Below, piece after piece: positions 1-10,268 of a stretch of DNA of 10,268 nucleotides. The position numbers and the translations under genes are program-made. Every line of letters begins with the position of its first letter. Position 1 is the first letter of the stretch. The notes below the pieces were generated by a model that saw nothing but the letters and a program-made list of their open reading frames with translations, was not told the DNA's origin and made no database searches. The stretch lies in the IMG/VR virus record IMGVR_UViG_2563366845_000009, positions 1 to 10,268 of that record. One strand, 5' to 3'. Source of the DNA: a virus (taxonomy: Duplodnaviria; Heunggongvirae; Uroviricota; Caudoviricetes).

Positions 1-1242
1 ATGGCACGAAAAACCACCCCACTAACTATTACGGAGATCAAAAACGCACGACCAGGGGAAAAGGAATACACCCTGCAGGATGGCGGAGGATTATTTCTTC
101 TGGTGAAACCCTCCGGATCAAAAATCTGGCGTTTTACGTACTACCGCCCGGCAGATAAAAAACGGACTATCATCAGCCTCGGATCGCTGAATGATGTTTC
201 CCTGTCCGATGCCAGAGAACGACGGAATGAATACAGGTCACTCATAGCGAAGGGAGTTGACCCACAGGACCACGAACGCCGGAAACGTGAAGCAGAGAGT
301 CGGAAAAAGGGCAACACGTTCGAAAAAGTTGCCTCGGACTGGTACGAGATGAAAAAAGGCCAGAATCTGGCTTACAACACGATTAAGGATATCTGGCGAT
401 CCCTGGAAAAATACGTATTCCCGTACATCGGAAACACGCCAATAGATACCCTCACAGCTCGCCGCTTTGTTGAGATACTCACACCCATTAAAGCACGCGG
501 CAACCTGGAAACCCTGAAACGCGTTTTACAACGCATCAATGAAGTGATGGATTTTGCTGCCAACAGTGGGCTGATTGACATCAACACCGCCGCGAACGTC
601 CGCAAGGCATTCCCCTCACCCACCAAAAAGCACATGCCAACCATCCGACCGGAACAGCTACCGCAGCTAATGCACGATTTATCGGTCGCCAGCATAGAAC
701 GGCAAACCAGATTGCTGATTGAGTGGCAACTGCTGACCGTAGCACGCCCAGCCGAAGCAGCCGCCGCACGCTGGGAAGAAATAGATCTCGATGCCGAAAC
801 ATGGACGATTCCAGCCGGACGCATGAAGATGCGCCGTGACCACGTGATCCCCCTTTGCGGTCAGGCTATGGCTGTACTGGAAACCATGAAGCCAATCAGC
901 GCACACAGGGAACACGTTTTTCCCAGCCTTAAAAACCCGATGCTGCCAATGAGCAGCCAGACCGCTAACGCCGCATTGCGCCGGATGGGTTACGCTGGTG
1001 TGCTGGTGTCTCACGGATTACGCGCCATATTCAGTACAGCAGCGAACGAGGAAGGATTCGAGCCGGACGTAATCGAGGCCGCACTCGCACACGTGGACAC
1101 AAACGAGGTAAGGCGAGCATATAACCGAAGTAACTACCTGGAAAAGCGCGTGGTGCTTATGCGCTGGTGGGGGGAATTTGTAGAGGCCGCAGCTACCGGA
1201 GTGACCATAGCCAGTGGTAAAAGGGGTATCCGTGCCGTGTAA
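1..1242 (+). CDS. int: Site-specific tyrosine recombinase, P4-type integrase family (N-terminal arm-binding domain plus C-terminal catalytic domain)
   Basis: 413-aa ORF with stop at 1240-1242. N-terminus (KNARPGEKEYTLQDGGGLFLLVKPSGSKIWRFTY) is typical of the P4-integrase N-terminal domain; C-terminus has the HGLRA box and a conserved Tyr region (RRAYNRSNYLEKR). No homology search was run. Confidence 0.93.
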   Translation: MARKTTPLTITEIKNARPGEKEYTLQDGGGLFLLVKPSGSKIWRFTYYRPADKKRTIISLGSLNDVSLSDARERRNEYRSLIAKGVDPQDHERRKREAESRKKGNTFEKVASDWYEMKKGQNLAYNTIKDIWRSLEKYVFPYIGNTPIDTLTARRFVEILTPIKARGNLETLKRVLQRINEVMDFAANSGLIDINTAANVRKAFPSPTKKHMPTIRPEQLPQLMHDLSVASIERQTRLLIEWQLLTVARPAEAAAARWEEIDLDAETWTIPAGRMKMRRDHVIPLCGQAMAVLETMKPISAHREHVFPSLKNPMLPMSSQTANAALRRMGYAGVLVSHGLRAIFSTAANEEGFEPDVIEAALAHVDTNEVRRAYNRSNYLEKRVVLMRWWGEFVEAAATGVTIASGKRGIRAV

Positions 1243-1266
1243 CTGTACAAAAAACCAGTAAAAGCG

Positions 1267-1295
1267 ATGCAAACCATGCTAAACCATCGTATAAT
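1267..1295 (+). promoter_or_regulatory. Candidate sigma70 promoter: perfect -10 TATAAT (1290-1295) with weak -35 (ATGCAA, 1267-1272)
   Basis: Perfect TATAAT hexamer about 60 bp upstream of the AAGGAG ribosome-binding site and GTG of the next ORF; the -35 matches consensus at only 3 of 6 positions. Confidence 0.3.
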
Positions 1296-1358
1296 CGCCA
1301 CAACCCACCCAATACAGAGAGGAGTCACCCAAATCATGAAATTCAAGGAGCTATCCAG

Positions 1359-1601
1359 GTGTTTTTCAATGAAAAGGTATCCCCTGCTTGCGGCGAAGGG
1401 CTGCAACTGGCGTTAATGGCAAATCGTGAATTCTGGTCAACATACGATCCGGAAGACAAATCAACAGCCCCCACAAAACACGAGGTAGTCAGTTTTTTGC
1501 GCTCACGTGGCGCATCGAAAAACCTGGCTGAAAGCATCGACAAGGTGCTGAGACCCACCAGCCTTAAATGCGGTGGGCGGCCTAAGAAGTGGAAACGGTA
1601 A
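1359..1601 (+). CDS. Hypothetical small protein (80 aa, GTG start; alternative ATG at 1416)
   Basis: AAGGAG (1345-1350) lies 8 nt upstream of GTG 1359; stop TAA 1599-1601 is followed immediately by a terminator hairpin. No recognisable motif. Confidence 0.4.
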   Translation: MFFNEKVSPACGEGLQLALMANREFWSTYDPEDKSTAPTKHEVVSFLRSRGASKNLAESIDKVLRPTSLKCGGRPKKWKR

Positions 1602-1607
1602 TCACAA

Positions 1608-1636
1608 TAGCGGCCCCTTGCGGTCGCTATTTTTTT
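1608..1636 (+). terminator. Rho-independent terminator candidate
   Basis: Imperfect 8-bp stem (TAGCGGCC / GGTCGCTA, one G-T wobble) at 1608-1629 followed by a run of seven T (1630-1636), directly after the stop at 1601. Confidence 0.45.
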
Positions 1637-1678
1637 GCAGAAAGAAAAGCGTAATCAATGAGATAAAAAACAGTGAGT

Positions 1679-1694
1679 ACCGTTTTAAAACGGT
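1679..1694. promoter_or_regulatory. Perfect 16-bp palindrome ACCGTTTTAAAACGGT upstream of the AlpA-family gene (candidate operator; alternatively part of a hairpin/terminator with the T-run at 1703-1707)
   Basis: Reverse complement is identical; extended by outer arms AGTACC (1676-1681) / GGTACT (1696-1701); lies about 80 bp upstream of the GTG at 1772. Confidence 0.35.
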
Positions 1695-1771
1695 GGGTAC
1701 TGTTTTTCCCGCCCTGCCCTGTTTTACCGTATTTATCACCGGAATACGCCGGATTAACGAGGTAAAACATA

Positions 1772-1978
1772 GTGGAAACAATCAGAAAAATACTTACCCG
1801 TCAGGAAGTAAAAAATATTCTGCGCATCAAGGCAGACAGTTCGCTACAGGACATGATCAACGCCGGAAAATTCCCGAAAGGCTTCAAAATCGGTCTGCGT
1901 CGTGTTGGCTGGTATGAAGATGAAGTGCTGGCCTGGCTGAAAGAGCGCGAGGAAGAAGCGCGCGGAACGGCTGCGTAA
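1772..1978 (+). CDS. alpA: AlpA-family (MerR-like HTH) phage transcriptional regulator / excisionase-like protein
   Basis: 68-aa ORF, GTG start with GAGGT 7 nt upstream; sequence (ILRIKADSSLQDMINAGKFPKGFKIGLRRVGWYEDEVLAWLKER) matches the conserved AlpA/Vis-family pattern, including the VGW motif. Confidence 0.82.
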   Translation: METIRKILTRQEVKNILRIKADSSLQDMINAGKFPKGFKIGLRRVGWYEDEVLAWLKEREEEARGTAA

Positions 1979-2260
1979 TGGTGTGAGGCGTAACGCGATG
2001 AACATAACAAAAAGCGCCCCGTTGCCGGAGCGCCCTTGCGAACAATTAACCTGCTGCGAAAAAAATGGATCAGTGCAGGGGAATTATATCAACCGTGTGG
2101 CGAAGCGCCACAATTGCCGGATAACAGGCAAAGAAAAGGCCACCAGTCACGGCGGCCCTGCGACACAAATTTCGCGTTATCCCCAACGCATGAGCATCGC
2201 CAACAATGCCACATTTGCGGCTGGTGGGCAATGTGATCAGTGTGCTGGCTTGCTGGTGGG

Positions 2261-2440
2261 CTATTCCTGCTCTTTGGCTTTGCGCCGCTGGCGGCGTTTG
2301 ATCTCGCCTTGCATTGACGCAATGATGAATTGTGATGTGCTTTCGCCTGATTCTTTCACTGATTCCATGGCGTTTACTATTTCGTGTGGTACACGAGCCT
2401 TTAGAGCTTGTGATTTTGCGTTTTTTGTACCCGTTGCCAT
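2261..2440 (-). CDS. Small ribbon-helix-helix (Arc/MetJ/CopG-like) DNA-binding protein, putative repressor
   Basis: Internal ATG of the 120-aa minus ORF at 2438-2440, preceded by GAGGAA (6-nt spacer); 59 aa, MATGTKNAKSQALKARVPHEIVNAMESVKESGESTSQFIIASMQGEIKRRQRRKAKEQE. Pattern is beta-strand (LKARVP), helix A, G-x-S turn (SGEST), helix B, then a basic tail. Transcribed divergently from the promoter at 2502-2541. Confidence 0.55.
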   Translation of the reverse strand: MATGTKNAKSQALKARVPHEIVNAMESVKESGESTSQFIIASMQGEIKRRQRRKAKEQE

Positions 2441-2501
2441 TTCTATTCCTCTGGTGGATTGGTGGGGGACAGTATACACAGAAAAAGCACAAATAAAACT
2501 C

Positions 2502-2541
2502 TTGACGTGGGCCACACCTAAAACATATAGTGGGCCACACC
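2502..2541 (+). promoter_or_regulatory. Candidate sigma70 promoter (TTGACG-N18-TATAGT) overlapped by two direct repeats of GTGGGCCACACC (putative operator)
   Basis: -35 TTGACG 2502-2507; -10 TATAGT 2526-2531; exact 12-bp repeats at 2507-2518 and 2530-2541 (23 bp centre to centre), each containing a GTGG..CCAC half-palindrome. Sits between the divergent RHH gene and the downstream + strand gene block. Confidence 0.45.
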
Positions 2542-2639
2542 TTGAAATTATCAAGGCGCATAAATGCAAAGCCCCGCAAGTGTCGTTACCACTCGCAGGG
2601 CTTCTAACCACCAACGATAGCAACGGTATCGAGGTAGCT

Positions 2640-3179
2640 ATGTTAAATCATACCACACACCCGCAAGGGTGGGACTCGCACAACCTGAATAAAGCGGGTA
2701 TGAAAAACCTGTTGATCGCCACTGCCAGCCAGGGCTATGATTTACCCGCACCAGCAAAATCTGGTGCCGGGATTGGCGTCCTGGTATTTAACGAAGCGCA
2801 CAACACGCGCCCTGCGTGTTTTTTTGTGCCGGATAGTCACACCTTATCAATGGTGGGCTGTATGGGGGCGGAGCAATCCGCGCCGGGTTCTTCGTTAACC
2901 GGTTACGCCAACCCTGTACAGTCCACCGCCAGCGAAATTGGCGTTTCCTGCGGTGGGTTTATTAAACCTAACGAAGAGGCTGCCAACATGGCTACTACCC
3001 CTACCCTTATACATTCCCAAACTGCCTTTATCTGGCGCTTTATCATCTTTGGCGCGTCAGAATCTCAAATCATCCACGTGACCGCCTGGACAGAACGCGA
3101 AGCGCGTAACCATTGCCCGTCCGGTTGTGTCGCTGTATTCGCCGCCCGTATTCGTCAGGAGGTGCGCCATGTGCAATAA
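2640..3179 (+). CDS. Hypothetical protein (179 aa), first gene downstream of the putative operator-controlled promoter
   Basis: ATG 2640 preceded by GAGG (5-nt spacer), in frame with the long 1983-3179 ORF whose 5' portion overlaps the antisense RHH gene and the promoter; typical coding composition; no recognisable motif. Alternative start at ATG 2700. Confidence 0.45.
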   Translation: MLNHTTHPQGWDSHNLNKAGMKNLLIATASQGYDLPAPAKSGAGIGVLVFNEAHNTRPACFFVPDSHTLSMVGCMGAEQSAPGSSLTGYANPVQSTASEIGVSCGGFIKPNEEAANMATTPTLIHSQTAFIWRFIIFGASESQIIHVTAWTEREARNHCPSGCVAVFAARIRQEVRHVQ

Positions 3180-3429
3180 CACCCGTCCGGATGCAACCAC
3201 CGAAGCTATCAAAACGCTGATGGATGCGCTGATTGATATTTCTGTTATCGCAGACAAAGCGCATAAGCACGCCACCACTGAAACAGAATATGCCGGGGCT
3301 TTCGTTCCTCACTCACTGGCTGTAATGCAACTTAGTGCTGATATGGCGCTGAATGAGGCTAAAGCCATCCTGATTGCTGATTGTGAAAATGGGGGGGGGT
3401 TATGCGTGATGATCGTTTTAATTCCCTGA
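3169..3429 (+). CDS. Hypothetical small protein (86 aa)
   Basis: Strong AGGAGG (3157-3162) 6 nt upstream of ATG 3169; overlaps the stop of the upstream gene (coupled). Its 3' end contains a G9 homopolymer (3391-3399). Confidence 0.5.
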   Translation: MCNNTRPDATTEAIKTLMDALIDISVIADKAHKHATTETEYAGAFVPHSLAVMQLSADMALNEAKAILIADCENGGGLCVMIVLIP

Positions 3430-3623
3430 AACAGGAATTTTCCGGCGTTCCTGATGATGCGGCTGATGCGCTTTCGTCAATATCTGAAATTATGCGGGTG
3501 GCTTTTTTCTTTCTTTGCACTGATGAGCACAGAGATACAGGGCTAAATATTCTTGATATTGCCGCTAACTATGCTGATTTCGTGACAGAAGCTGTTTTAA
3601 GAAAAACGACGGACGGGGATTAA
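3402..3623 (+). CDS. Hypothetical small protein (73 aa)
   Basis: ATG 3402 lies immediately after the G9 tract (G-rich ribosome-binding site); overlaps the previous ORF by 28 nt in the -1 frame; stop TAA 3621-3623. Confidence 0.45.
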   Translation: MRDDRFNSLKQEFSGVPDDAADALSSISEIMRVAFFFLCTDEHRDTGLNILDIAANYADFVTEAVLRKTTDGD

Positions 3624-3624
3624 T

Positions 3625-3858
3625 ATGCGTGATATTTACCACGAAACAATAGACCGCGCATTTCTTGCACTTTCTCACAGTGAAAGCATGATGGAAATAT
3701 TGCGCATATGGCTTGAAACACTTGGCGACAATGAACGCGACAAACAAAAATCAAGAATTGCCACGGCATTAATAACGCTTCTTGAGCCTGTAATAATGGA
3801 GCTACAAGAAATAGACCTATTGCACGACAGATATAAAGAACAGCACACCGGAGAATAA
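3625..3858 (+). CDS. Hypothetical small protein (77 aa)
   Basis: ATG 3625 is 1 nt after the previous stop, GGGGA 5 nt upstream; acidic/helical composition. Confidence 0.5.
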   Translation: MRDIYHETIDRAFLALSHSESMMEILRIWLETLGDNERDKQKSRIATALITLLEPVIMELQEIDLLHDRYKEQHTGE

Positions 3859-3863
3859 AAATA

Positions 3864-4163
3864 ATGAAACTTAAATATTCTGGCTTTACTGCCAGCGGCC
3901 CCGCTCGGCCTGAAATCCGCCCCGGCGATATTTTCAAAGATAAATACGGCGGCACTGTAACGATTAAAAGCGTGGCGGGACGGTGTGTTACTTACCGCCG
4001 TGATGGGTACGGCTATGACTGCGTGATGCCTGTTTATCAGTTCCGGCGTGATTTTTCTCTGGTACAGAACGCAACACGCGGTAAGCCCACCAGCAGGGAA
4101 AAAGCACGGGAAAATATTAAGAAAATAAAAAGCATGCTCAGCGCATCCAGAGGTAAAAAATGA
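3864..4163 (+). CDS. Hypothetical small basic protein (99 aa)
   Basis: ATG 3864 with GGAG upstream; stop TGA 4161-4163 overlaps the helicase ATG (ATGA coupling). Basic C-terminal tail. Possibly related to small proteins found upstream of replication genes in enterobacterial islands, but not verifiable here. Confidence 0.5.
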   Translation: MKLKYSGFTASGPARPEIRPGDIFKDKYGGTVTIKSVAGRCVTYRRDGYGYDCVMPVYQFRRDFSLVQNATRGKPTSREKARENIKKIKSMLSASRGKK

Positions 4164-5566
4164 AACTGGCACCGAACGTAAAACTGTTACCGAAAGATAA
4201 ACACACTGAGGCGGTTATTTTTGCGGGTGATAATGCTCACTCCTTTGCAGAACATTACATGATTGCACAGGCCAAAAAAGCAGGCGATCCCATCCCTCCG
4301 GTTTACCTGGGCCGTTATCAGTTAAGCGAACTGGACAATTTACAGATTGTTGATGAAGGACGATACAGAGCAAAGGTCATACGCGCCGGAAACCTGGACG
4401 ATATGCAGATGCTGACCATTGCCACCAAACTGGCGATCGCAGGTGTCCAGGAAGCACGGTTACTTTCAGAGAATTTCGAACTGCTGGAGGACTGGAGCGA
4501 GCAACTACCGCGGCTTAAAGAAACCTGGGAACGCGGGGAAAGTCTGGTCATGAATGGTGGAAAGCGAAAAATCACACTTCCCATCTCATGGGGTTCTGAG
4601 GGATTCGACGCGCAGCAAAGCTACGTAATTAAGGGGCTTATTCCGGCTGAGTCATTATGCAGCACCTACGGGGCCAGCGGTTCTTATAAATCGTTCCTGG
4701 CTATTTCCTGGTCGTGCCATGTTGCCACAGGTATGGCATGGGGAGGCCGCAGGGTAAGTAAGGGCGCTGTTATCTATATCGCTGGCGAAGGCAGTATGGG
4801 CGTAAAACGCCGCGTTAAGGCGTGGGAGATAACCCATGACAAGGTGGTTACAGATTTGTGCATCGTTAACGCGCCTGTCTTCCCCGCATCGCCTGACTAT
4901 GTGGAGCAGGTTATCAGGACTGCCGGACTTGTTAAGAGCAGAACGGGCGAAAATGTGCGGCTGATTGTGATCGACACGCTGGCCCGTTGCTTTGGTGGAA
5001 ATGATGAAAATGATTCCCGCGATATGGGCGCATTTATCCAGGGGTGTGACGCGATAAAGCAGGCCACAGGGGCCACGGTGCTGGTGGTTCACCATTCCGG
5101 CAAGGATGAAACAAAGGGGGCGCGCGGTTCCAGCGCATTCCGTGCCGCGCTTGATGCAGAGTACCGAATCAGCCGGGAAAATTCAGAGGTTACAGCACTG
5201 GTGGCGGCGTGTACGAAGATGAAGGACGCAGAGGAGCCAAAAGAGAGTGCATACGATCTTAAAAGCGTGGAGGTGTTCACCGATACAGATGGCGAAGAGA
5301 TTGTGTCCATGGTGGTGATTGACGTTCCCCGCGCCCCTGCTGAACTGGAGCGCATAGAGGAGGCCGGGAACAAGACGGAAAATCACACGGCTTTATGGGG
5401 TTGTATCCGGTCGCGTATACAGCATGGTGATAAATGTACGATCCCGCTGCTACGTGATGACATGAAAAAGCTGGGATATGACACAAAACACCTTAAACGA
5501 TGGTTAGCCAAACTGGAAAAAGACGGCGTGATTTGCGTCGATGGGGATGATGTTCACCCACTGTAA
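4160..5566 (+). CDS. Replicative helicase, RepA / AAA_25 (RecA-like, DnaB-superfamily) ATPase
   Basis: 468 aa; Walker A-like GASGSYKS, Walker B-like hydrophobic stretch ending in Asp (RLIVIDTLARCF), and the VLVVHHSGKD motif typical of RepA-type helicases; GAGG ribosome-binding site 6 nt upstream; followed immediately by the iteron array. Confidence 0.82.
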   Translation: MKLAPNVKLLPKDKHTEAVIFAGDNAHSFAEHYMIAQAKKAGDPIPPVYLGRYQLSELDNLQIVDEGRYRAKVIRAGNLDDMQMLTIATKLAIAGVQEARLLSENFELLEDWSEQLPRLKETWERGESLVMNGGKRKITLPISWGSEGFDAQQSYVIKGLIPAESLCSTYGASGSYKSFLAISWSCHVATGMAWGGRRVSKGAVIYIAGEGSMGVKRRVKAWEITHDKVVTDLCIVNAPVFPASPDYVEQVIRTAGLVKSRTGENVRLIVIDTLARCFGGNDENDSRDMGAFIQGCDAIKQATGATVLVVHHSGKDETKGARGSSAFRAALDAEYRISRENSEVTALVAACTKMKDAEEPKESAYDLKSVEVFTDTDGEEIVSMVVIDVPRAPAELERIEEAGNKTENHTALWGCIRSRIQHGDKCTIPLLRDDMKKLGYDTKHLKRWLAKLEKDGVICVDGDDVHPL

Positions 5567-5766
5567 AAAGTGGGCGTTAAAAGTGGGAGTAGTGGGTAAT
5601 TTAACTGGAATTTAACAAAATCGCCCACTTTCCCACGTGTATACATCCCAAAAAGTGGGCACTAAAAAAATACTTATGAAACAGTACGATATAAAACCAC
5701 AAAATCCCAGGTGGGACGAAGTGGGAAACCATGAAAAGTGGGCAGAAAAAGTGGGCACAGGTGGGC
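5565..5766 (+). repeat. Iteron-type replication origin: nine direct copies of (A)AAGTGGGC in two clusters, two inverted copies, and an AT-rich spacer
   Basis: GTGGG cores on + at 5570, 5583, 5592, 5656, 5711, 5721, 5738, 5751, 5761; inverted CCCAC at 5624-5628 and 5632-5636; AT-rich 5598-5620 (AATTTAAC twice) and 5661-5705; immediately 3' of the helicase gene. Confidence 0.7.
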
Positions 5767-5768
5767 GC

Positions 5769-6020
5769 ATGACAAGAAAAACCAGAGATAAGACAGCACC
5801 AAAATATAAAGCGTTAGACATGACAGAGCACGCCTTAAAGGTGGCAATCAGAACTATAGACCGCCACGCCGGAGAAGGATACGCGAAAGCACATCCCGAA
5901 CTGATAAGCGCATTCATGACCACGGCGGCGGCAAACTTTGCCACGCTGACAGAACGGGAGATTGCCGAAGCGGAACTGGTGACAACCATCAACGTTAAAA
6001 CCGGAGAGCAGACAGCATGA
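5769..6020 (+). CDS. Hypothetical protein (83 aa), translationally coupled to ssb
   Basis: ATG 5769 with GGTGGG 5 nt upstream; the longer 5637 start would run through the iterons; stop TGA 6018-6020 overlaps the ssb ATG 6017. Confidence 0.45.
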   Translation: MTRKTRDKTAPKYKALDMTEHALKVAIRTIDRHAGEGYAKAHPELISAFMTTAAANFATLTEREIAEAELVTTINVKTGEQTA

Positions 6021-6439
6021 CAGCACAGATAGCGGCTTACGGGCGGCTGGTGGCTGACCCGCAGTTAAAGACCACCAGCAAAGGGACACAAATGGCGATG
6101 GCGAGTATGGCGGTTCCCCTGCCGTGCAGCCAGGCCGATGACGGAACGGCGACGATGTGGTTATCCGTCCTGGCGTTTGGCAGACAGGCCGACGCACTGG
6201 CAAAGCACCACAAAGGCGAACTCGTGAGCGTGGCGGGTAACATGCAGGTAAGCCAGTGGACAGGCCAGAACGGCGAAACGCGGCAGGGCTGGCAGGTTAT
6301 CGCAGACAGCGTAATCAGTGCGCGAACGGCGCGACCGGGCGGCAAAAAAGGCCAACAGGGGCAGGCCACTGATGCACTGAACAGGGCAAAACAACAGGCG
6401 GGAAATGATGATCCGTACGGGGATAACATACCGTTTTAA
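6017..6439 (+). CDS. ssb: Single-stranded DNA-binding protein (short SSB with acidic C-terminal tail)
   Basis: 140 aa; N-terminus (AYGRLVADPQLKTT, then QWTGQNGETRQ) fits the SSB OB-fold pattern; Gly/Gln-rich linker; C-terminal DDPYGDNIPF resembles the conserved SSB tail (E. coli ends ...DDDIPF). Confidence 0.85.
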   Translation: MTAQIAAYGRLVADPQLKTTSKGTQMAMASMAVPLPCSQADDGTATMWLSVLAFGRQADALAKHHKGELVSVAGNMQVSQWTGQNGETRQGWQVIADSVISARTARPGGKKGQQGQATDALNRAKQQAGNDDPYGDNIPF

Positions 6440-6456
6440 GCAACGAGTGACAGAAG

Positions 6457-6478
6457 CCGGGATTTTCCCGGTTTTTTT
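6457..6478 (+). terminator. Rho-independent terminator downstream of ssb
   Basis: Stem CCGGG(A)/(T)CCCGG (6457-6471) followed by seven T (6472-6478). Confidence 0.6.
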
Positions 6479-6527
6479 ACGGGTCCTCCCGGTGGAGTGG
6501 CCTTACCACGGGGCGGGAGCGGCGCGG
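6472..6527 (+). other. cos-like site, copy A (cosQ/cosN-like core with a divergent right half)
   Basis: 6472-6516 (TTTTTTTACGGGTCCTCCCGGTGGAGTGGCCTTACCACGGGGCGG) is identical to 9009-9053; the next 11 nt match copy B at 8 of 11. Contains dyad CCCGGTGG-N10-CCACGGGG and the ACG|GGGCGG junction resembling the lambda cosN nick site. Confidence 0.5.
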
Positions 6528-6740
6528 AAAAAGGCTGGTTTTTGCATTTTCATGGCGGCGGCAGCATGTGTGATAATTTATTGATAATTAAAAAATATTT
6601 CCGTTTTCACCTGTACAATATTTTTTTCGCCCTGTCATTAGACCAGTTTGTAATTAATTGAAATATATAAATAAATCCGTTTTTCACCTGCCAGGTGGAG
6701 TTGCCAGTGTCAAAACGTGTTCAGATGGCGGGATATTTAT

Positions 6741-6763
6741 GCCGGATTTTCTCCGGCTTTTTT
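6741..6763 (+). terminator. Second rho-independent terminator-like hairpin in the ssb-capsid intergenic region
   Basis: GCCGGA-TTTTC-TCCGGC (6741-6757) followed by TTTTTT (6758-6763). Confidence 0.45.
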
Positions 6764-6865
6764 GTGTCTGAATCTGACTAATCTGTTTTCATGATAGAAA
6801 TATATTTATCTACCACTTTTATCGATCAATAATGCGCGCAGTTTAGTCAGTAAGAGGAAGTTACT

Positions 6866-7075
6866 GTGAATTGTATTAATGACCTGAACACAGGCGAGGT
6901 AAGAGGTGGTTCCGTTCATCTGGATGCGCAGACCGTTATGCGCCTTAAGCAGTACAGGATCGACCACATAAATCATCATCCTGGCCAACCATTACCAGGT
7001 GTGGCGCAGATTGTCAGACACGCAGTTAACGCGTGGCTTGATAAGAATGGTTTTGCATCTGGGGGTGAGCAATGA
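6866..7075 (+). CDS. Hypothetical small protein (69 aa), translationally coupled to the protease-capsid gene
   Basis: GTG 6866 with GAGGA 7 nt upstream; stop TGA 7073-7075 overlaps ATG 7072; basic region (VHLDAQTVMRLKQYRIDHINHH) could bind nucleic acid. Confidence 0.5.
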   Translation: MNCINDLNTGEVRGGSVHLDAQTVMRLKQYRIDHINHHPGQPLPGVAQIVRHAVNAWLDKNGFASGGEQ

Positions 7076-8985
7076 ATCACTGGTACACCATTAAGGCGGC
7101 GGGTGTTCGCGGAGCGGCAGAAATATCCATCTATGAAGAAATTGGCGGCTTCGGTATCACCGCGAAGCAGTTTGCGGAAGACCTGAAAGCCCTGGGCGAT
7201 GTCTCACATATCGACCTGCGGATCCATTCGCCAGGTGGTGACGTGTTTGAAGGCATCGCCATCTATAACCTGTTACGGAATCATCCGGCAGAAATTACGG
7301 TTTATATCGATGGTGTTGCGGCTTCAATGGCTTCGGTTGTCGCAATGGCTGGCGATCGTGTTGTGATGCCGGAAAACGCCATGATGATGATACATAAGCC
7401 GTGGGGTATCTCTGGCGGAAATGCTGGTGATATGCGTGATTATGCTGATTTGCTGGATAAGGTGGAAACCGTGTTAATCCCTGCTTATGCCAGAAAAACG
7501 GGCAAATCAGCACAGGAAATTACCGCCATGCTGGAAGATGAAACCTGGATGGACGGGAAAGAATGCCTTAAGCAAGGTTTTGCTGATGAATTGTTGCCAT
7601 CCGTCAGAGCAATGGCGCGAATTGAATCGAAACGCACAGGAGATTTTTCACACATGCCGGAAACCATTAAAGGAATGATTACCCCGCCACAGGGAGCAGC
7701 CAATATTGCTGGTAATGAACAGAAGCGCATCAACGGAATAAGTGAAGTGTTTAGCCTGTTCGGCAGTCGTTACGACGGGATCAAAATGGCGTGCCTGGAA
7801 GATGCATCATGTACACCGGAGATGGCCCGTGAAAAGTTGTTGAACGAGATGGGGCGCGAGTCCACGCCATCAAATAAAAATACCCCGGCTCATATTTATG
7901 CCGGTAACGGGAACATAACAGGTGATGCAATTCGTCAGGGGCTTTATTCTCGTCTCGGGTATGAACGCCCAGAGCGGGGAAATCCTTACGCGATGATGAG
8001 CCTTTTTGAAATGGCCCAGGCATCACTAACGGATCGTGGTATCAGTGTTGGCGGTTTTTTAAATCGCTCGCAGGTCGTTAATGCAGCTTTCACACACAGC
8101 AGCAGCGATTTTTCTCATATTCTGGCTGGTGGTGCTGAAAAATCAGTACTGAAAGGCTGGCAGGACAGCGGCGAAACGTTTCAGAAATGGACGCGTACCG
8201 GATCGCTTTCAAACTTTCATGAAGCAAAGCGCGTTGGTCTGAATGGTTTTTCAAAGCTGGATAAAGTACCGGAAGGTGCGGAATATAAATACATCACCAC
8301 CAGAGATAAAGGTGTACCTATTGCGCTGGCCACGTACGGGAATATTTTTTCCGTTACCCGTCAGGCCATTATCAACGATGACCTGACCCAGTTAACTACA
8401 ATCCCCATGGCGATGGGGCGTGCGGCCGCCAGAACAGTAGGTAATCTGGTTTATCTTCTGTTAACCAGCAACGGCAAATTTACGGATGGTAAAGCGTTAT
8501 TCCATGCCGATCATAAAAATCTTATTGCGAAGGATATGGACATGGAGGGGCTTAACGAAGCCCGTAAGCTGATGCGACTACAGGAGGATGCCAACGGCGA
8601 CTCCCTGAATATTACCCCCGCTTTTGTTCTGGTCCCTGCTGCGCTGGAGTCTGCCGCACATCGCGCCATTCTGTCATCGTCATCACTCTTTCCGGTTGAT
8701 GGTGAGGGCACTATCAATCAGAACCCCGGCATCATTAACGTGGTGAAAGATATGGCTGAGGTTATTGTTGAGCCACGTCTTGATAAGAACAATAACAAGG
8801 AGTGGTATGTAGCCGCAGCGAAAGGGATGGACACGATAGAGGTCGCTTATCTTGATGGTATTGATACGCCATATCTTGAGGAGCAGGAGGGCTTTACTGT
8901 TGATGGTGTCGCCTGGAAGGTGCGCATAGATGCAGGTGTTGCGGCCCTCGATTATCGTGGACTACTGAAATCGAGTGGAGCATGA
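7072..8985 (+). CDS. Fused prohead protease (ClpP/S14-like serine protease) and HK97-fold major capsid protein
   Basis: 637 aa; N-terminal ~200 aa has the ClpP-like catalytic Ser context (GVAASMASVVAMAG) and His context (MMMIHKPWG); the C-terminal ~400 aa is consistent with a Mu gpT / HK97-type major head protein; an ORF of this length with no internal stops is strong coding evidence. Confidence 0.88.
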   Translation: MNHWYTIKAAGVRGAAEISIYEEIGGFGITAKQFAEDLKALGDVSHIDLRIHSPGGDVFEGIAIYNLLRNHPAEITVYIDGVAASMASVVAMAGDRVVMPENAMMMIHKPWGISGGNAGDMRDYADLLDKVETVLIPAYARKTGKSAQEITAMLEDETWMDGKECLKQGFADELLPSVRAMARIESKRTGDFSHMPETIKGMITPPQGAANIAGNEQKRINGISEVFSLFGSRYDGIKMACLEDASCTPEMAREKLLNEMGRESTPSNKNTPAHIYAGNGNITGDAIRQGLYSRLGYERPERGNPYAMMSLFEMAQASLTDRGISVGGFLNRSQVVNAAFTHSSSDFSHILAGGAEKSVLKGWQDSGETFQKWTRTGSLSNFHEAKRVGLNGFSKLDKVPEGAEYKYITTRDKGVPIALATYGNIFSVTRQAIINDDLTQLTTIPMAMGRAAARTVGNLVYLLLTSNGKFTDGKALFHADHKNLIAKDMDMEGLNEARKLMRLQEDANGDSLNITPAFVLVPAALESAAHRAILSSSSLFPVDGEGTINQNPGIINVVKDMAEVIVEPRLDKNNNKEWYVAAAKGMDTIEVAYLDGIDTPYLEEQEGFTVDGVAWKVRIDAGVAALDYRGLLKSSGA

Positions 8986-8992
8986 CAACAAG

Positions 8993-9015
8993 GGCGGCGA
9001 TAGCCGCCTTTTTTT
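8993..9015 (+). terminator. Rho-independent terminator downstream of the capsid gene
   Basis: GGCGGC-GATA-GCCGCC perfect 6-bp stem (8993-9008) followed by seven T (9009-9015); the T-run is also the first 7 nt of the cos repeat. Confidence 0.6.
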
Positions 9016-9090
9016 ACGGGTCCTCCCGGTGGAGTGGCCTTACCACGGGGCGGCAGACGCGCGGGTTTTCGCTATTTATGAGCCTTTTTC
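9009..9090 (+). other. Lambda-like cos site, copy B (cosQ/cosN plus proximal cosB), directly upstream of the small terminase gene
   Basis: Window CCACG|GGGCGGCAGACG|CGCGGGTTTTCGCTATTTATGA (9043-9082) compared with the lambda left end as recalled from memory (GGGCGGCGACCT CGCGGGTTTTCGCTATTTATGA): predicted 12-nt cohesive end GGGCGGCAGACG (9048-9059), followed by a 22-nt match to lambda. Upstream TACGGGTCCT matches the lambda right-end motif. Confidence 0.65.
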
Positions 9091-9192
9091 GGGTGCTGGT
9101 GGTGGTTTTGTTGTTCGCTCTATCTCTATGAATAAAAAGGGAAAGATAAAACAAATACACCAACCTGAAACATTACTTAAGTGGGGATATTG

Positions 9193-9735
9193 ATGAAATC
9201 GCACCTGATGAACAAAAAAAACATGGCGCAAAGCTGCCGTGTAAGTGCGACAGCGTTCGACAAGTGGGGAGTGACTCCCGTTGAACGTAAAGGCCGCGAG
9301 GCGTTTTATGATGTTGCCAGCGTAATAGACAATCGGGTTAGCAATGCAATTAACCAGATTACAGACGACAAAGGCGAGATTGATAATGATGAGCTTTTGC
9401 GAGTCAGGATCAGATTGCTGACAGCGCAGGCGGAGGCGCAGGAGCTTAAAAACGAGCGCGAACGCGGCGACGTGATTAGTACGGAATTTTGTATATATGC
9501 GCTTTCAAAACTGGCGAGTCAGATTTCATCTATCATGGACAGCCTGCCGCTTACCATGCAAAGGCGCTTCCCACAGATGACCCCCGCCATGCTGGATGGC
9601 CTGAAAAAAGAAGTTGTCAGAGCCTGTAACGCATGCACAAAACTTGATGAAAACATCCCGCGAATGCTGTCCGATTATCTGATGGAAACTACCGGAAATG
9701 TGTCTGATAAGTTTCAGCCGGATAAAGACAAGTAA
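9193..9735 (+). CDS. Terminase small subunit, lambda Nu1-like (winged-HTH cosB-binding)
   Basis: By recollection of lambda Nu1: LLTAQAEAQELKNERERGDVISTEFCIYALSKLASQISSIMDSLPLTMQRRFPQ aligns with RLTRAQADAQELKNARDSAEVVETAFCTFVLSRIAGEIASILDGLPLSVQRRFPE, and LDENIPRMLSDYL with LDELIPGLLSEYI. Start is ambiguous (GTG 9181, ATG 9193, ATG 9208); 9193 gives 180 aa. Confidence 0.85.
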   Translation: MKSHLMNKKNMAQSCRVSATAFDKWGVTPVERKGREAFYDVASVIDNRVSNAINQITDDKGEIDNDELLRVRIRLLTAQAEAQELKNERERGDVISTEFCIYALSKLASQISSIMDSLPLTMQRRFPQMTPAMLDGLKKEVVRACNACTKLDENIPRMLSDYLMETTGNVSDKFQPDKDK

Positions 9736-9753
9736 CGTAGTGCACAATGACCG

Positions 9754-9776
9754 AAGCCAGTTTACTGACTGGCTTT
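9754..9776 (+). terminator. Weak hairpin / possible terminator after the terminase gene
   Basis: AAGCCAGT-TTACTG-ACTGGCTT 8-bp stem (9754-9775) followed by only TTT. Confidence 0.3.
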
Positions 9777-9896
9777 CAGCGTTGCGCTGGTGGGAGTTAT
9801 GCGTCAGTGATGAACAAAAAATAATCGAAATCGACACCGAAAAATAAAACATCAAGTCATATCAATATATTGCATTGGTGGTGATGACGAATAAAA

Positions 9897-10268
9897 ATGC
9901 AAAAACTAGCCTTTTTCCGCGATGCTCCCGCCCCGTGGCAGGGCACCCCACCAGGAGGACCCGCCATCACTATGGAGGCCATGACCATGACCGAGACCGA
10001 AGCGCTCGGGATAATCCGCAGTATTACCGGAATCAGCCAGCAGGCTGACGAACAGGCCACGCAGCCGGATACAGTCACCGCTGAAAATTACGCGCGTGTG
10101 ATGGCTGAGGTGATGCGCCGTGACGGTATCGAGCTTAATGGCGTGGATATACGCAACATACGCACCAGAGTTCTGGAGATGTTGTCGTACCGTCGCCGCG
10201 TGCAGATGTACCAGGAGAAAGAAAAAATTACGTACCAGTGGAAGAAGCCGGAGCGGTTACGGCGATAA
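9897..10268 (+). CDS. Hypothetical protein (123 aa from ATG 9897; alternative 98-aa start at ATG 9972)
   Basis: Open frame ending at TAA 10266-10268; ATG 9897 has no Shine-Dalgarno; the in-frame ATG 9972 has AGGAGG (9953-9958) but a long 13-nt spacer. No recognisable motif. Confidence 0.4.
   Translation: MQKLAFFRDAPAPWQGTPPGGPAITMEAMTMTETEALGIIRSITGISQQADEQATQPDTVTAENYARVMAEVMRRDGIELNGVDIRNIRTRVLEMLSYRRRVQMYQEKEKITYQWKKPERLRR

Follow-up and report, generated by a model that had tools for sequence, protein, structure and literature searches.

A probable satellite-type iteron origin and its predicted RecA-like initiator-helicase in an Escherichia coli phage-inducible chromosomal island

In the phage-inducible chromosomal islands (PICIs) of Escherichia coli, as in those of Gram-positive bacteria, the origin of replication lies directly 3′ of the gene for the replication initiator, and the rule for such origins is two sets of iterons around AT-rich DNA, immediately 3′ of rep (PMC6092414). 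The rep-ori segment of the E. coli island EcCICFT073 keeps a temperature-sensitive plasmid; rep is required for this, and deletion of ori significantly lowers maintenance (PMC6092414). In the pathogenicity islands of Staphylococcus aureus (SaPIs), Rep is a self-loading initiator-helicase for which no separate loader is known, its C-terminal winged helix reads 6–12 penta- or hexanucleotide iterons just downstream of rep, and the origin has an AT-rich centre with iterons oppositely oriented on its two sides (as summarised in Qiao et al. 2022, PMC9371898). Here we describe a locus of this kind in a 10,268-nucleotide (nt) stretch of viral DNA (IMG/VR record IMGVR_UViG_2563366845_000009, positions 1 to 10,268; hereafter the window), in which the gene for a helicase of 468 amino acids (aa) is followed by an array of short repeats. 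The region 5565–5768 is very probably the replication origin of a PICI, and the 468-aa protein encoded just upstream would be both its initiator and its helicase. This type of origin is already known and catalogued, and the window adds a further case; the parts that merit experiments are a RecA-type motor fused to a winged helix, and a relation between one residue of the helicase and one base of the repeats.

The helicase open reading frame (ORF; 4160–5566, + strand) stops with TAA at 5564–5566, and the next gene starts with the ATG at 5769, as annotated in RefSeq records 99.8% identical to the window; the array therefore spans the entire 202-nt intergenic gap. The interval 5565–5766 contains 11 GTGGG/CCCAC cores: nine lie on the + strand, with first bases at 5570, 5583, 5592, 5655, 5711, 5721, 5738, 5751 and 5761, and the − strand carries the other two, at 5624 and 5632. 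An A-rich flank precedes most cores, giving the form AAAAGTGGGC/A. From the density of cores in the rest of the window, 0.54 would be expected per 202 nt (Poisson P = 2e-11), and the densest 202-nt cluster in 1000 dinucleotide-preserving shuffles held six. For the degenerate motif RGTGGGH the window has 25 occurrences where 6.7 would be expected, 11 of them inside 5556–5766, and all six perfect matches to AARGTGGGM in the window fall within 5567–5756. An earlier note, made from the sequence of this DNA, had described nine direct and two inverted copies directly 3′ of the helicase gene. The core count agrees exactly with that description, as does the position: the first iteron overlaps the helicase stop codon and the array reaches the next gene. 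The note had also placed AT-rich DNA between two clusters of repeats. The AT-rich DNA is real, with a GC content of 20% at 5598–5622 and 26.5% at 5661–5709 compared with 50% for the window (both segments rank in the lowest ~1% of equal-size windows), but the copies fall into three groups separated by two spacers.

The left group (5565–5597, + strand) consists of three direct copies, with cores at 5570–5574, 5583–5587 and 5592–5596, in slots that are kept in relatives. It is followed by AT-rich spacer 1 (5598–5622), across which the iterons face each other, and by an inverted pair (5623–5637, − strand) with CCCAC cores at 5624–5628 and 5632–5636. The element TGTATACA (5638–5645) lies between the inverted iterons and the central direct iteron (5650–5660, + strand; core 5655–5659), at the centre of an imperfect palindrome that extends from 5623 to 5660. 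AT-rich spacer 2 (5661–5709), A-rich on the + strand, is a candidate unwinding region, and the right group (5710–5766, + strand) carries five direct copies with cores at 5711, 5721, 5738, 5751 and 5761. No DnaA box was found in 5565–5766, and no site for integration host factor (IHF) in the origin region, at ≤1 mismatch, and the window-wide counts of both are those of chance; this is consistent with independence from the host initiator. A search of the origin region against Rfam found no structured RNA family.

Compared with the SaPI origins (SaPIbov1, SaPI1 and SaPI5), the window has the same arrangement of repeats 3′ of the initiator gene, with 11 pentamer cores in sets around AT-rich DNA, here two spacers. 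The opposite orientation of iterons is found across spacer 1, where three + strand copies on the left converge on two − strand copies on the right, whereas spacer 2 has + strand copies on both sides. A C-terminal winged helix is present by prediction (AlphaFold2 mean predicted local distance difference test score, pLDDT, 89; Foldseek E-values weak), and the iterons appear to be specific to their initiator, judged by covariation with helicase residue 444 in 63 of 63 loci and in mosaic helicases, as described below. The proteins themselves differ. SaPI Reps have SF3 or MCM-type AAA+ motors, whereas the window's core is a RecA-like AAA_25 domain related to RSF1010 RepA and T7 gp4; an SF3 or MCM-type motor is a trait that the characterised members have, and is no part of the published definition of the origin. 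The SaPI Reps, from a different host phylum, have no detectable sequence homology to the window's helicase, which also has an extra N-terminal module of ~130 aa that is common to other enterobacterial Reps.

EcCICFT073 carries the same series of elements in the same slot: a DUF4222 gene, rep, a 288-nt gap with iterons around AT-rich DNA, an 85-aa gene and a gene for a single-stranded DNA-binding protein (SSB). However, its Rep is a 584-aa protein with a D5_N/DUF5906/Pox_D5 (SF3) core, and its iterons are TCTACC/GGTAGA. On these sequence comparisons, the EcCICFT073 origin is an analogue of the window's origin and not a homologue. Since EcCICFT073 is syntenic with the window and yet has an unrelated Rep core and unrelated iterons, the replication gene and its origin form an exchangeable cassette in these islands. 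Closer to the window is EcCI11128, with the same tRNA-Pro yejM/yejO attachment site, a helicase of the same family, a 201-nt gap and an identical layout of 11 GTGGG-core copies (consensus GTGGGGA). An island resembling capsid-forming PICIs (cf-PICIs), L002, and an island of an O157 strain, L003, have the same layout with GTGAG cores. The recognition helix is TKHLKRWL in the window, and MKHFRRWL, VKNMRRWL or MKNFRRWL in EcCI11128 and related PICIs and cf-PICIs, and the iteron subtype and packaging modules also differ.

Three better-known groups of replicons share single features with the window. RepA of the IncQ plasmid RSF1010 (1g8y) is the closest solved relative of the window's ATPase core, and RSF1010 oriV has direct iterons beside an AT-rich segment. 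The RSF1010 iterons are ~20 bp long and are bound by a separate protein, RepC; the plasmid also has a primase, RepB, and its helicase has no DNA-recognition domain. In the window, by contrast, a predicted recognition domain is fused to the helicase, and none of the ten window ORFs scanned matched a RepB or RepC family. The alpha protein of P4, a phage satellite of E. coli, is a single replication protein that combines a helicase with a C-terminal DNA-binding domain, which binds short repeats in the origin. Alpha is a primase with an SF3 helicase, and its repeats lie in two separated sites, ori and crr; their sequence differs from that of the window's repeats, and no homology was detected between alpha and the window's helicase core. 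In classic iteron plasmids (F RepE, R6K pi, pPS10 RepA), winged-helix initiators bind direct repeats beside AT-rich DNA. Those iterons are 17–22 bp long and are accompanied by DnaA boxes and often by IHF sites, and the initiator recruits host DnaB, whereas the window has a 5-nt core (~9 nt with the A-rich flank) and an initiator that would itself be the helicase; no Rep_3 initiator was matched among the window ORFs. The earlier note had seen in the array the classic layout of a Rep-dependent origin. Dependence on a Rep is supported by the position, copy number and orientation of the repeats, by the AT-rich spacers, by conservation across 91 loci and by covariation with the helicase, but the origin is not of the classic plasmid iteron type. 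Going by these sequence features, the repeats are almost certainly a replication origin of the satellite (SaPI/PICI) type, whose initiator doubles as the helicase.

Conservation of the layout was judged over 91 loci from many genera of Enterobacterales. The loci came from three sources: 80 from one-genome-per-species Enterobacterales, ten E. coli, Salmonella and metagenome loci picked for mosaic helicases, and E. coli islands from complete genomes. Nearly all of them keep the same order of elements, beginning at the helicase stop codon: direct copies, a spacer, one or more inverted copies, a TGTATA, TATACA or TATATA element in the TGTATACA slot, a direct copy, a long spacer and further direct copies. 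The core always has the form GTG-N-G and varies between elements. The window has GTGGG; L002, L003 and every Xenorhabdus locus have GTGAG; and GTGCG(GCA) is found in Citrobacter, Kosakonia, Enterobacter and Kluyvera, as well as in some of the Salmonella and Klebsiella elements. In an alignment of 12 E. coli-type origins the slots are fixed, and the fourth base of the core flips together at almost every slot, including the inverted ones, both of which are CTCAC in relatives of the GTGAG class. Between classes, base 4 differs in 7–10 of the 11 slots, compared with 9–20% of the other core bases and 23–36% of the non-iteron origin DNA; within a class (the window versus L087), base 4 differs at none of 11 slots and the other core bases at one of 44, while the rest of the origin differs by 23%. 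We conclude that the cores are more conserved than their surroundings and that base 4 changes as one set across the slots. All 12 aligned origins have TGTATA and an A that follows it two bases later, and the TGTATACA slot is filled by an element of this kind in most of the 91 loci regardless of iteron class. That TGTATACA is kept across classes suggests a role independent of the recognition helix, for example as a first melting point.

Two candidates did not survive this comparison. A twelfth copy at 5557–5561 (− strand, inside the helicase coding sequence) was dropped, as it is not conserved in relatives, does not flip with the class and looks like chance; and a rule by which 12 iterons would serve two hexamers is unsupported, relatives in other genera carrying 4–8 copies. 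Five loci found through their helicases in GTDB (L025, L074, L082, L083 and L073) have few or no GTG-N-G copies downstream. One of them, L074, has a stop codon within the recognition helix (FSR*LDKL), and the five are probably decayed elements or, in some cases, the result of a wrong stop-codon extension.

The same replicon is also found on a circular molecule of 16,971 bp, Klebsiella pneumoniae pKp_Goe_795-4 (L097, CP018459.1), with GTGCGGCA iterons in the same layout. It encodes an integrase, a helicase of the window's type, a capsid protein, a head-tail adaptor, a terminase and a tape-measure protein, and was deposited as a non-mobilizable plasmid. Going by this gene content, the record probably represents a capsid-forming satellite, excised or episomal, and not a plasmid. 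Its circularity is consistent with an episomal replicating form of the PICI replicon, and is no proof of one.

The array could instead be an operator, at which the winged helix of the helicase or another island protein controls transcription or translation from 5769 onward and no replication starts. We consider this unlikely. It would account for the position of the array between two genes of one long unidirectional operon, with the last copy 3 nt before the ATG at 5769, and the predicted shape of the winged helix is one typical of repressors (LexA, DtxR, Fur and MarR, for example). However, 5300–6100 contains no sigma-70-like promoter and no + strand terminator (a single weak terminator-like match on the − strand is at chance level), and the rest of the island, for instance the DNA close to early promoters, has no perfect copy of the repeat. 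A set of eleven sites with two AT-rich spacers and a conserved inverted pair, attached to a helicase, matches an origin better than an operator. The array may still have a regulatory side role. The last iteron (CAGGTGGGC, core 5761–5765, in the stretch 5758–5771), which ends 3 nt upstream of the ATG of the 83-aa gene, resembles a Shine-Dalgarno sequence, and binding of the helicase there could also influence translation of the downstream gene.

If the repeats are an origin, some protein should read them, and the sequences of the relatives bear on which one. All columns of the helicase alignment were scanned against iteron class in the 63 loci with at least five copies. Column 444 alone has zero conditional entropy; for the runner-up the value is 0.26 bits. 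Residue 444 predicts the fourth base of the core in all 63 loci: His (13 loci) or Lys (18) goes with G, Asn (25) with A, and Ser (6) or Gly (1) with C. In protein–DNA contacts generally, His and Lys favour guanine and Asn favours adenine, and the pairing at residue 444 therefore fits direct readout. Mosaic helicases separate the parts of the protein. P0035 has the window's ATPase core (~127–396 identical) with a different C-terminus, and its iterons are GTGAGG; P0044 has the window's N-terminal domain, yet its iterons are GTGGGGA; and P0057, with a different core but the window's C-terminal helix TKHLKRWL, has window-type GTGGGC/GTGGGA iterons. In these mosaics iteron type follows the C-terminus, and not the N-terminal domain or the ATPase core. 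Two near-isogenic pairs narrow the difference further. P0044 and P0085 differ at three of the last 73 residues (P to A, H444N and D to Y) and have GTGGGGA and GTGAGGA iterons, respectively; P0057 and P0054 differ at six of the last 73, including H444N, and have GTGGG and GTGAG. Since the two pairs belong to different sub-lineages of the C-terminal domain, the His/Asn switch arose at least twice.

The structure prediction places residue 444 at a position suited to this role. Modelled alone with AlphaFold2, residues 396–468 (encoded at 5345–5563, + strand) give three helices followed by a beta-hairpin, with the mean pLDDT quoted above. Foldseek matches this model in the Protein Data Bank to the LexA–DNA complex 3jsp and to the winged helices of DtxR/IdeR, Fur and MarR/OhrR (template modelling score, TM, 0.6–0.74; probability 0.95–0.99). 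The CAC codon at 5489–5491 (+ strand) encodes His444, which directly precedes the third helix (445–454), at the recognition position. Because His444 sits just before helix 3 of the predicted winged helix and column 444 predicts the iteron class, the evidence from sequence and modelling indicates that the repeats are read by the helicase's C-terminal winged helix. The earlier note had proposed footprinting the helicase or its N-terminal domain on the repeats; as the reader, the N-terminal domain is contradicted by the mosaics, where iteron type goes with the C-terminal winged helix, and by the predictive residue 444. Positions beyond the pentamer also vary by class, with L092, L093, L050 and other loci of the GTGCG class among those that show it, and may track other helix residues. 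GTGGGC/A is found with TKHLK and GTGGGGA with MKHFR, and GTGGGGGA is found with xKKFx, GTGGGGGC with RKHFS and GTGCGGCA with RKSFx, which hints at a longer recognition code.

The winged helix is the last of three parts of the helicase, after an N-terminal alpha/beta domain (1–~130) and a RecA-like AAA_25 core (~146–320 and beyond). The protein matches Pfam AAA_25 (E = 4e-43) and, over its full length, PHROG 2850, and RefSeq annotates it as a 'helicase RepA family protein'. In a profile search, the closest solved relative of the ATPase core was RSF1010 RepA 1g8y (E = 2e-4), and Foldseek searches with a full-length AlphaFold2 model, built from a 16-sequence alignment, gave weak RecA-family matches (T7 gp4, KaiC and RadA/Rad51; TM ~0.2). 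From the 1g8y profile match and these weak fold matches, we judge that the motor is RecA-like, of the RSF1010 RepA type, and is neither SF3 nor MCM. The pLDDT of the full-length model is near 90 for residues 1–125 and 400–468. The N-terminal ~130 aa (4160–4550; pLDDT ~90) are a shuffled module that does not set iteron type. They are 46% identical to the N-terminus of the D5/SF3-type Rep of EcCICFT073 (L095, 9242–9640); with the N-terminal part of DUF927 proteins carried by Klebsiella plasmids the identity is 59%. Most helicases from other genera do not align over this region.

A different reader is conceivable, namely the DUF4222 protein or the 83-aa protein, which would bind the repeats and recruit the helicase; we regard this as very unlikely. 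Neither protein has a function on record, the DUF4222 gene overlaps the helicase start codon, and DUF4222 is present in all E. coli and Salmonella relatives. However, some relatives have the iterons but lack the 83-aa gene (L084, L089 and L091–L093), DUF4222 also lies upstream of the unrelated EcCICFT073 Rep with its different iterons, and no DUF4222 column predicts the class (best conditional entropy 0.36 bits, which is weak evidence, as 11 loci were usable). The array could also be taken for a cosB- or pac-like packaging site bound by the island's own Nu1-family small terminase (9181–9735), given that Nu1 of lambda uses a winged helix to bind repeated R sites. This idea is scarcely credible, since packaging modules and iteron classes are uncoupled: the Nu1-like small terminases of the window and L003 are 80% identical, yet the cores are GTGGG and GTGAG, the P27-family small terminase of L002 and the other terminases of EcCI11128 and the Klebsiella element accompany the same origin layout, and it is the helicase residue that predicts the class perfectly. 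The small terminase was accordingly rejected as the reader.

Several points weigh against the reading of the array as an origin bound by the C-terminus of a self-loading helicase. The pLDDT falls below 50 across much of residues 127–396, so that the case for ring formation and for helicase activity is made from family membership; the poor modelling of this core from a 16-sequence alignment also explains why the full-length fold search was weak. The E-values of the winged-helix matches are 0.05–0.2, as expected with a 73-residue query. The least stable duplex of the window is at 6570–6650, and not in the AT-rich spacers. The winged-helix coding sequence adjoins the origin, and the association between residue 444 and base 4 therefore partly reflects linkage and shared ancestry, which inflates the count of 63 of 63; independent His/Asn switches number only about two or three. 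The main weight of the case for the reader accordingly falls on three findings: no other column is as predictive as 444, two natural pairs are nearly isogenic, and ~10 separate sites change in concert. Homology to the tested EcCICFT073 origin was considered and rejected: ATPase core, C-terminus and iterons are unrelated, and only the N-terminal ~130 aa of Rep are common to the two. A literature search found no experiment addressing a PICI cassette of the RepA type.

Initiator-dependent replication has been shown for EcCICFT073 (PMC6092414) and for SaPIs (as summarised in PMC9371898), and by analogy with these the window's type of replicon would be expected to have origin activity. In the mechanism that we propose, the C-terminal winged helices of helicase protomers would bind the 11 short iterons, each an A-rich flank with a GTGGG core, and His444, at the start of the recognition helix, would read the fourth core base. 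Binding to the array would gather protomers on both sides of the two AT-rich spacers and of the central inverted pair, which flanks TGTATACA; within the imperfect palindrome, the divergent pair around this element would position them together with the flanking arrays. The DNA would open at that region, and the RecA-like domains, needing no separate loader, would close as rings around the exposed strands. The island SSB and the host replisome would then copy the excised island. On balance, we lean slightly towards a stronger form of this proposal, in which a self-loading initiator-helicase of RecA type (SF4-like) uses a one-residue/one-base code, residue 444 setting base 4 of GTG-N-G and so creating orthogonal replicons; the motor would fire on duplex DNA without a separate initiator or loader, and the divergent pair around TGTATACA would be the site of nucleation and melting.

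The element that carries the origin is, from its gene content, its yejM site and the occurrence of the same helicase family and layout in EcCI11128, identified as an E. coli PICI at tRNA-Pro (yejM/yejO). E. coli PICIs at yejM, including EcCI11128, are catalogued in Fillol-Salom et al. 2018 Table S1 (PMC6092414), and in E. coli RM11911 the same DNA is an island of ~10.5 kb between tRNA-Pro/yejM and yejO. The att sequence given in the 2018 supplement (TTTGTAGTTATACG) was searched for in the fetched loci and was present in none of them. As expected of a PICI (~10–15 kb, with a dedicated attachment site, int, a regulator of AlpA type, rep-ori, a module for packaging or interference and rightward transcription), the element has a tyrosine integrase (1–1242), an AlpA-type helix-turn-helix protein, an Ash/Icd region, DUF4222, the helicase, an SSB, a capsid/protease fusion and a Nu1-like small terminase. 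In the replication module, the DUF4222 gene (3864–4163, + strand) has a stop codon that overlaps the helicase start codon, and lies upstream of the helicase gene in all E. coli and Salmonella relatives. The 83-aa gene (5769–6020, + strand; PHROG 1231) directly follows the origin, and the SSB gene (6017–6439, + strand; Pfam SSB E = 4e-16, and so annotated in RefSeq) comes after it. The packaging module consists only of a fusion of a ClpP-like protease and the major capsid protein (7072–8985) and the Nu1-family small terminase, with no portal and no large terminase. Relatives with the same replicon have quite different packaging modules: L003 has a lambda-like capsid plus decoration protein, and in L002 the head set is complete and of HK97 type.

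Two further regions of the island are recorded here as separate observations. Rfam matches at gathering level mark an isrK Hfq-binding RNA (2748–2824, 80 bits) and a C4 antisense RNA (2846–2933, 75 bits), both on the + strand, just upstream of an Icd-like ORF and within a long mechanical ORF (1983–3179); together with the Icd-like ORF they look like a C4/Icd immunity cassette of the P1/P4 type in a PICI. The gap between the SSB and capsid genes (6440–7071) is AT-rich and holds the least stable duplex of the window. It contains a perfect IHF consensus at 6574–6586 (− strand) and a one-mismatch site at 6651–6663, and the gap, especially 6570–6663, is a candidate cos/packaging or late-promoter region.

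With a replicon that is standard for its class, the island should amplify itself after induction, and self-amplification underlies the high-frequency transfer of PICIs and their cargo genes. The relation between residue 444 and base 4 is a directly testable specificity determinant, which could explain why several related satellites can live together in a single E. coli genome and yet not cross-activate one another's origins, and which could supply orthogonal helicase/origin pairs for engineering. The replicon would also offer a simple bacterial system for how a hexameric helicase of the RecA fold enters duplex DNA without a loader. If the one-residue/one-base code is correct, a single substitution, with a concerted change of ~10 iterons, would yield mutually orthogonal satellite replicons, and there would be incompatibility- or specificity-like groups among the PICIs and cf-PICIs that share one cell.

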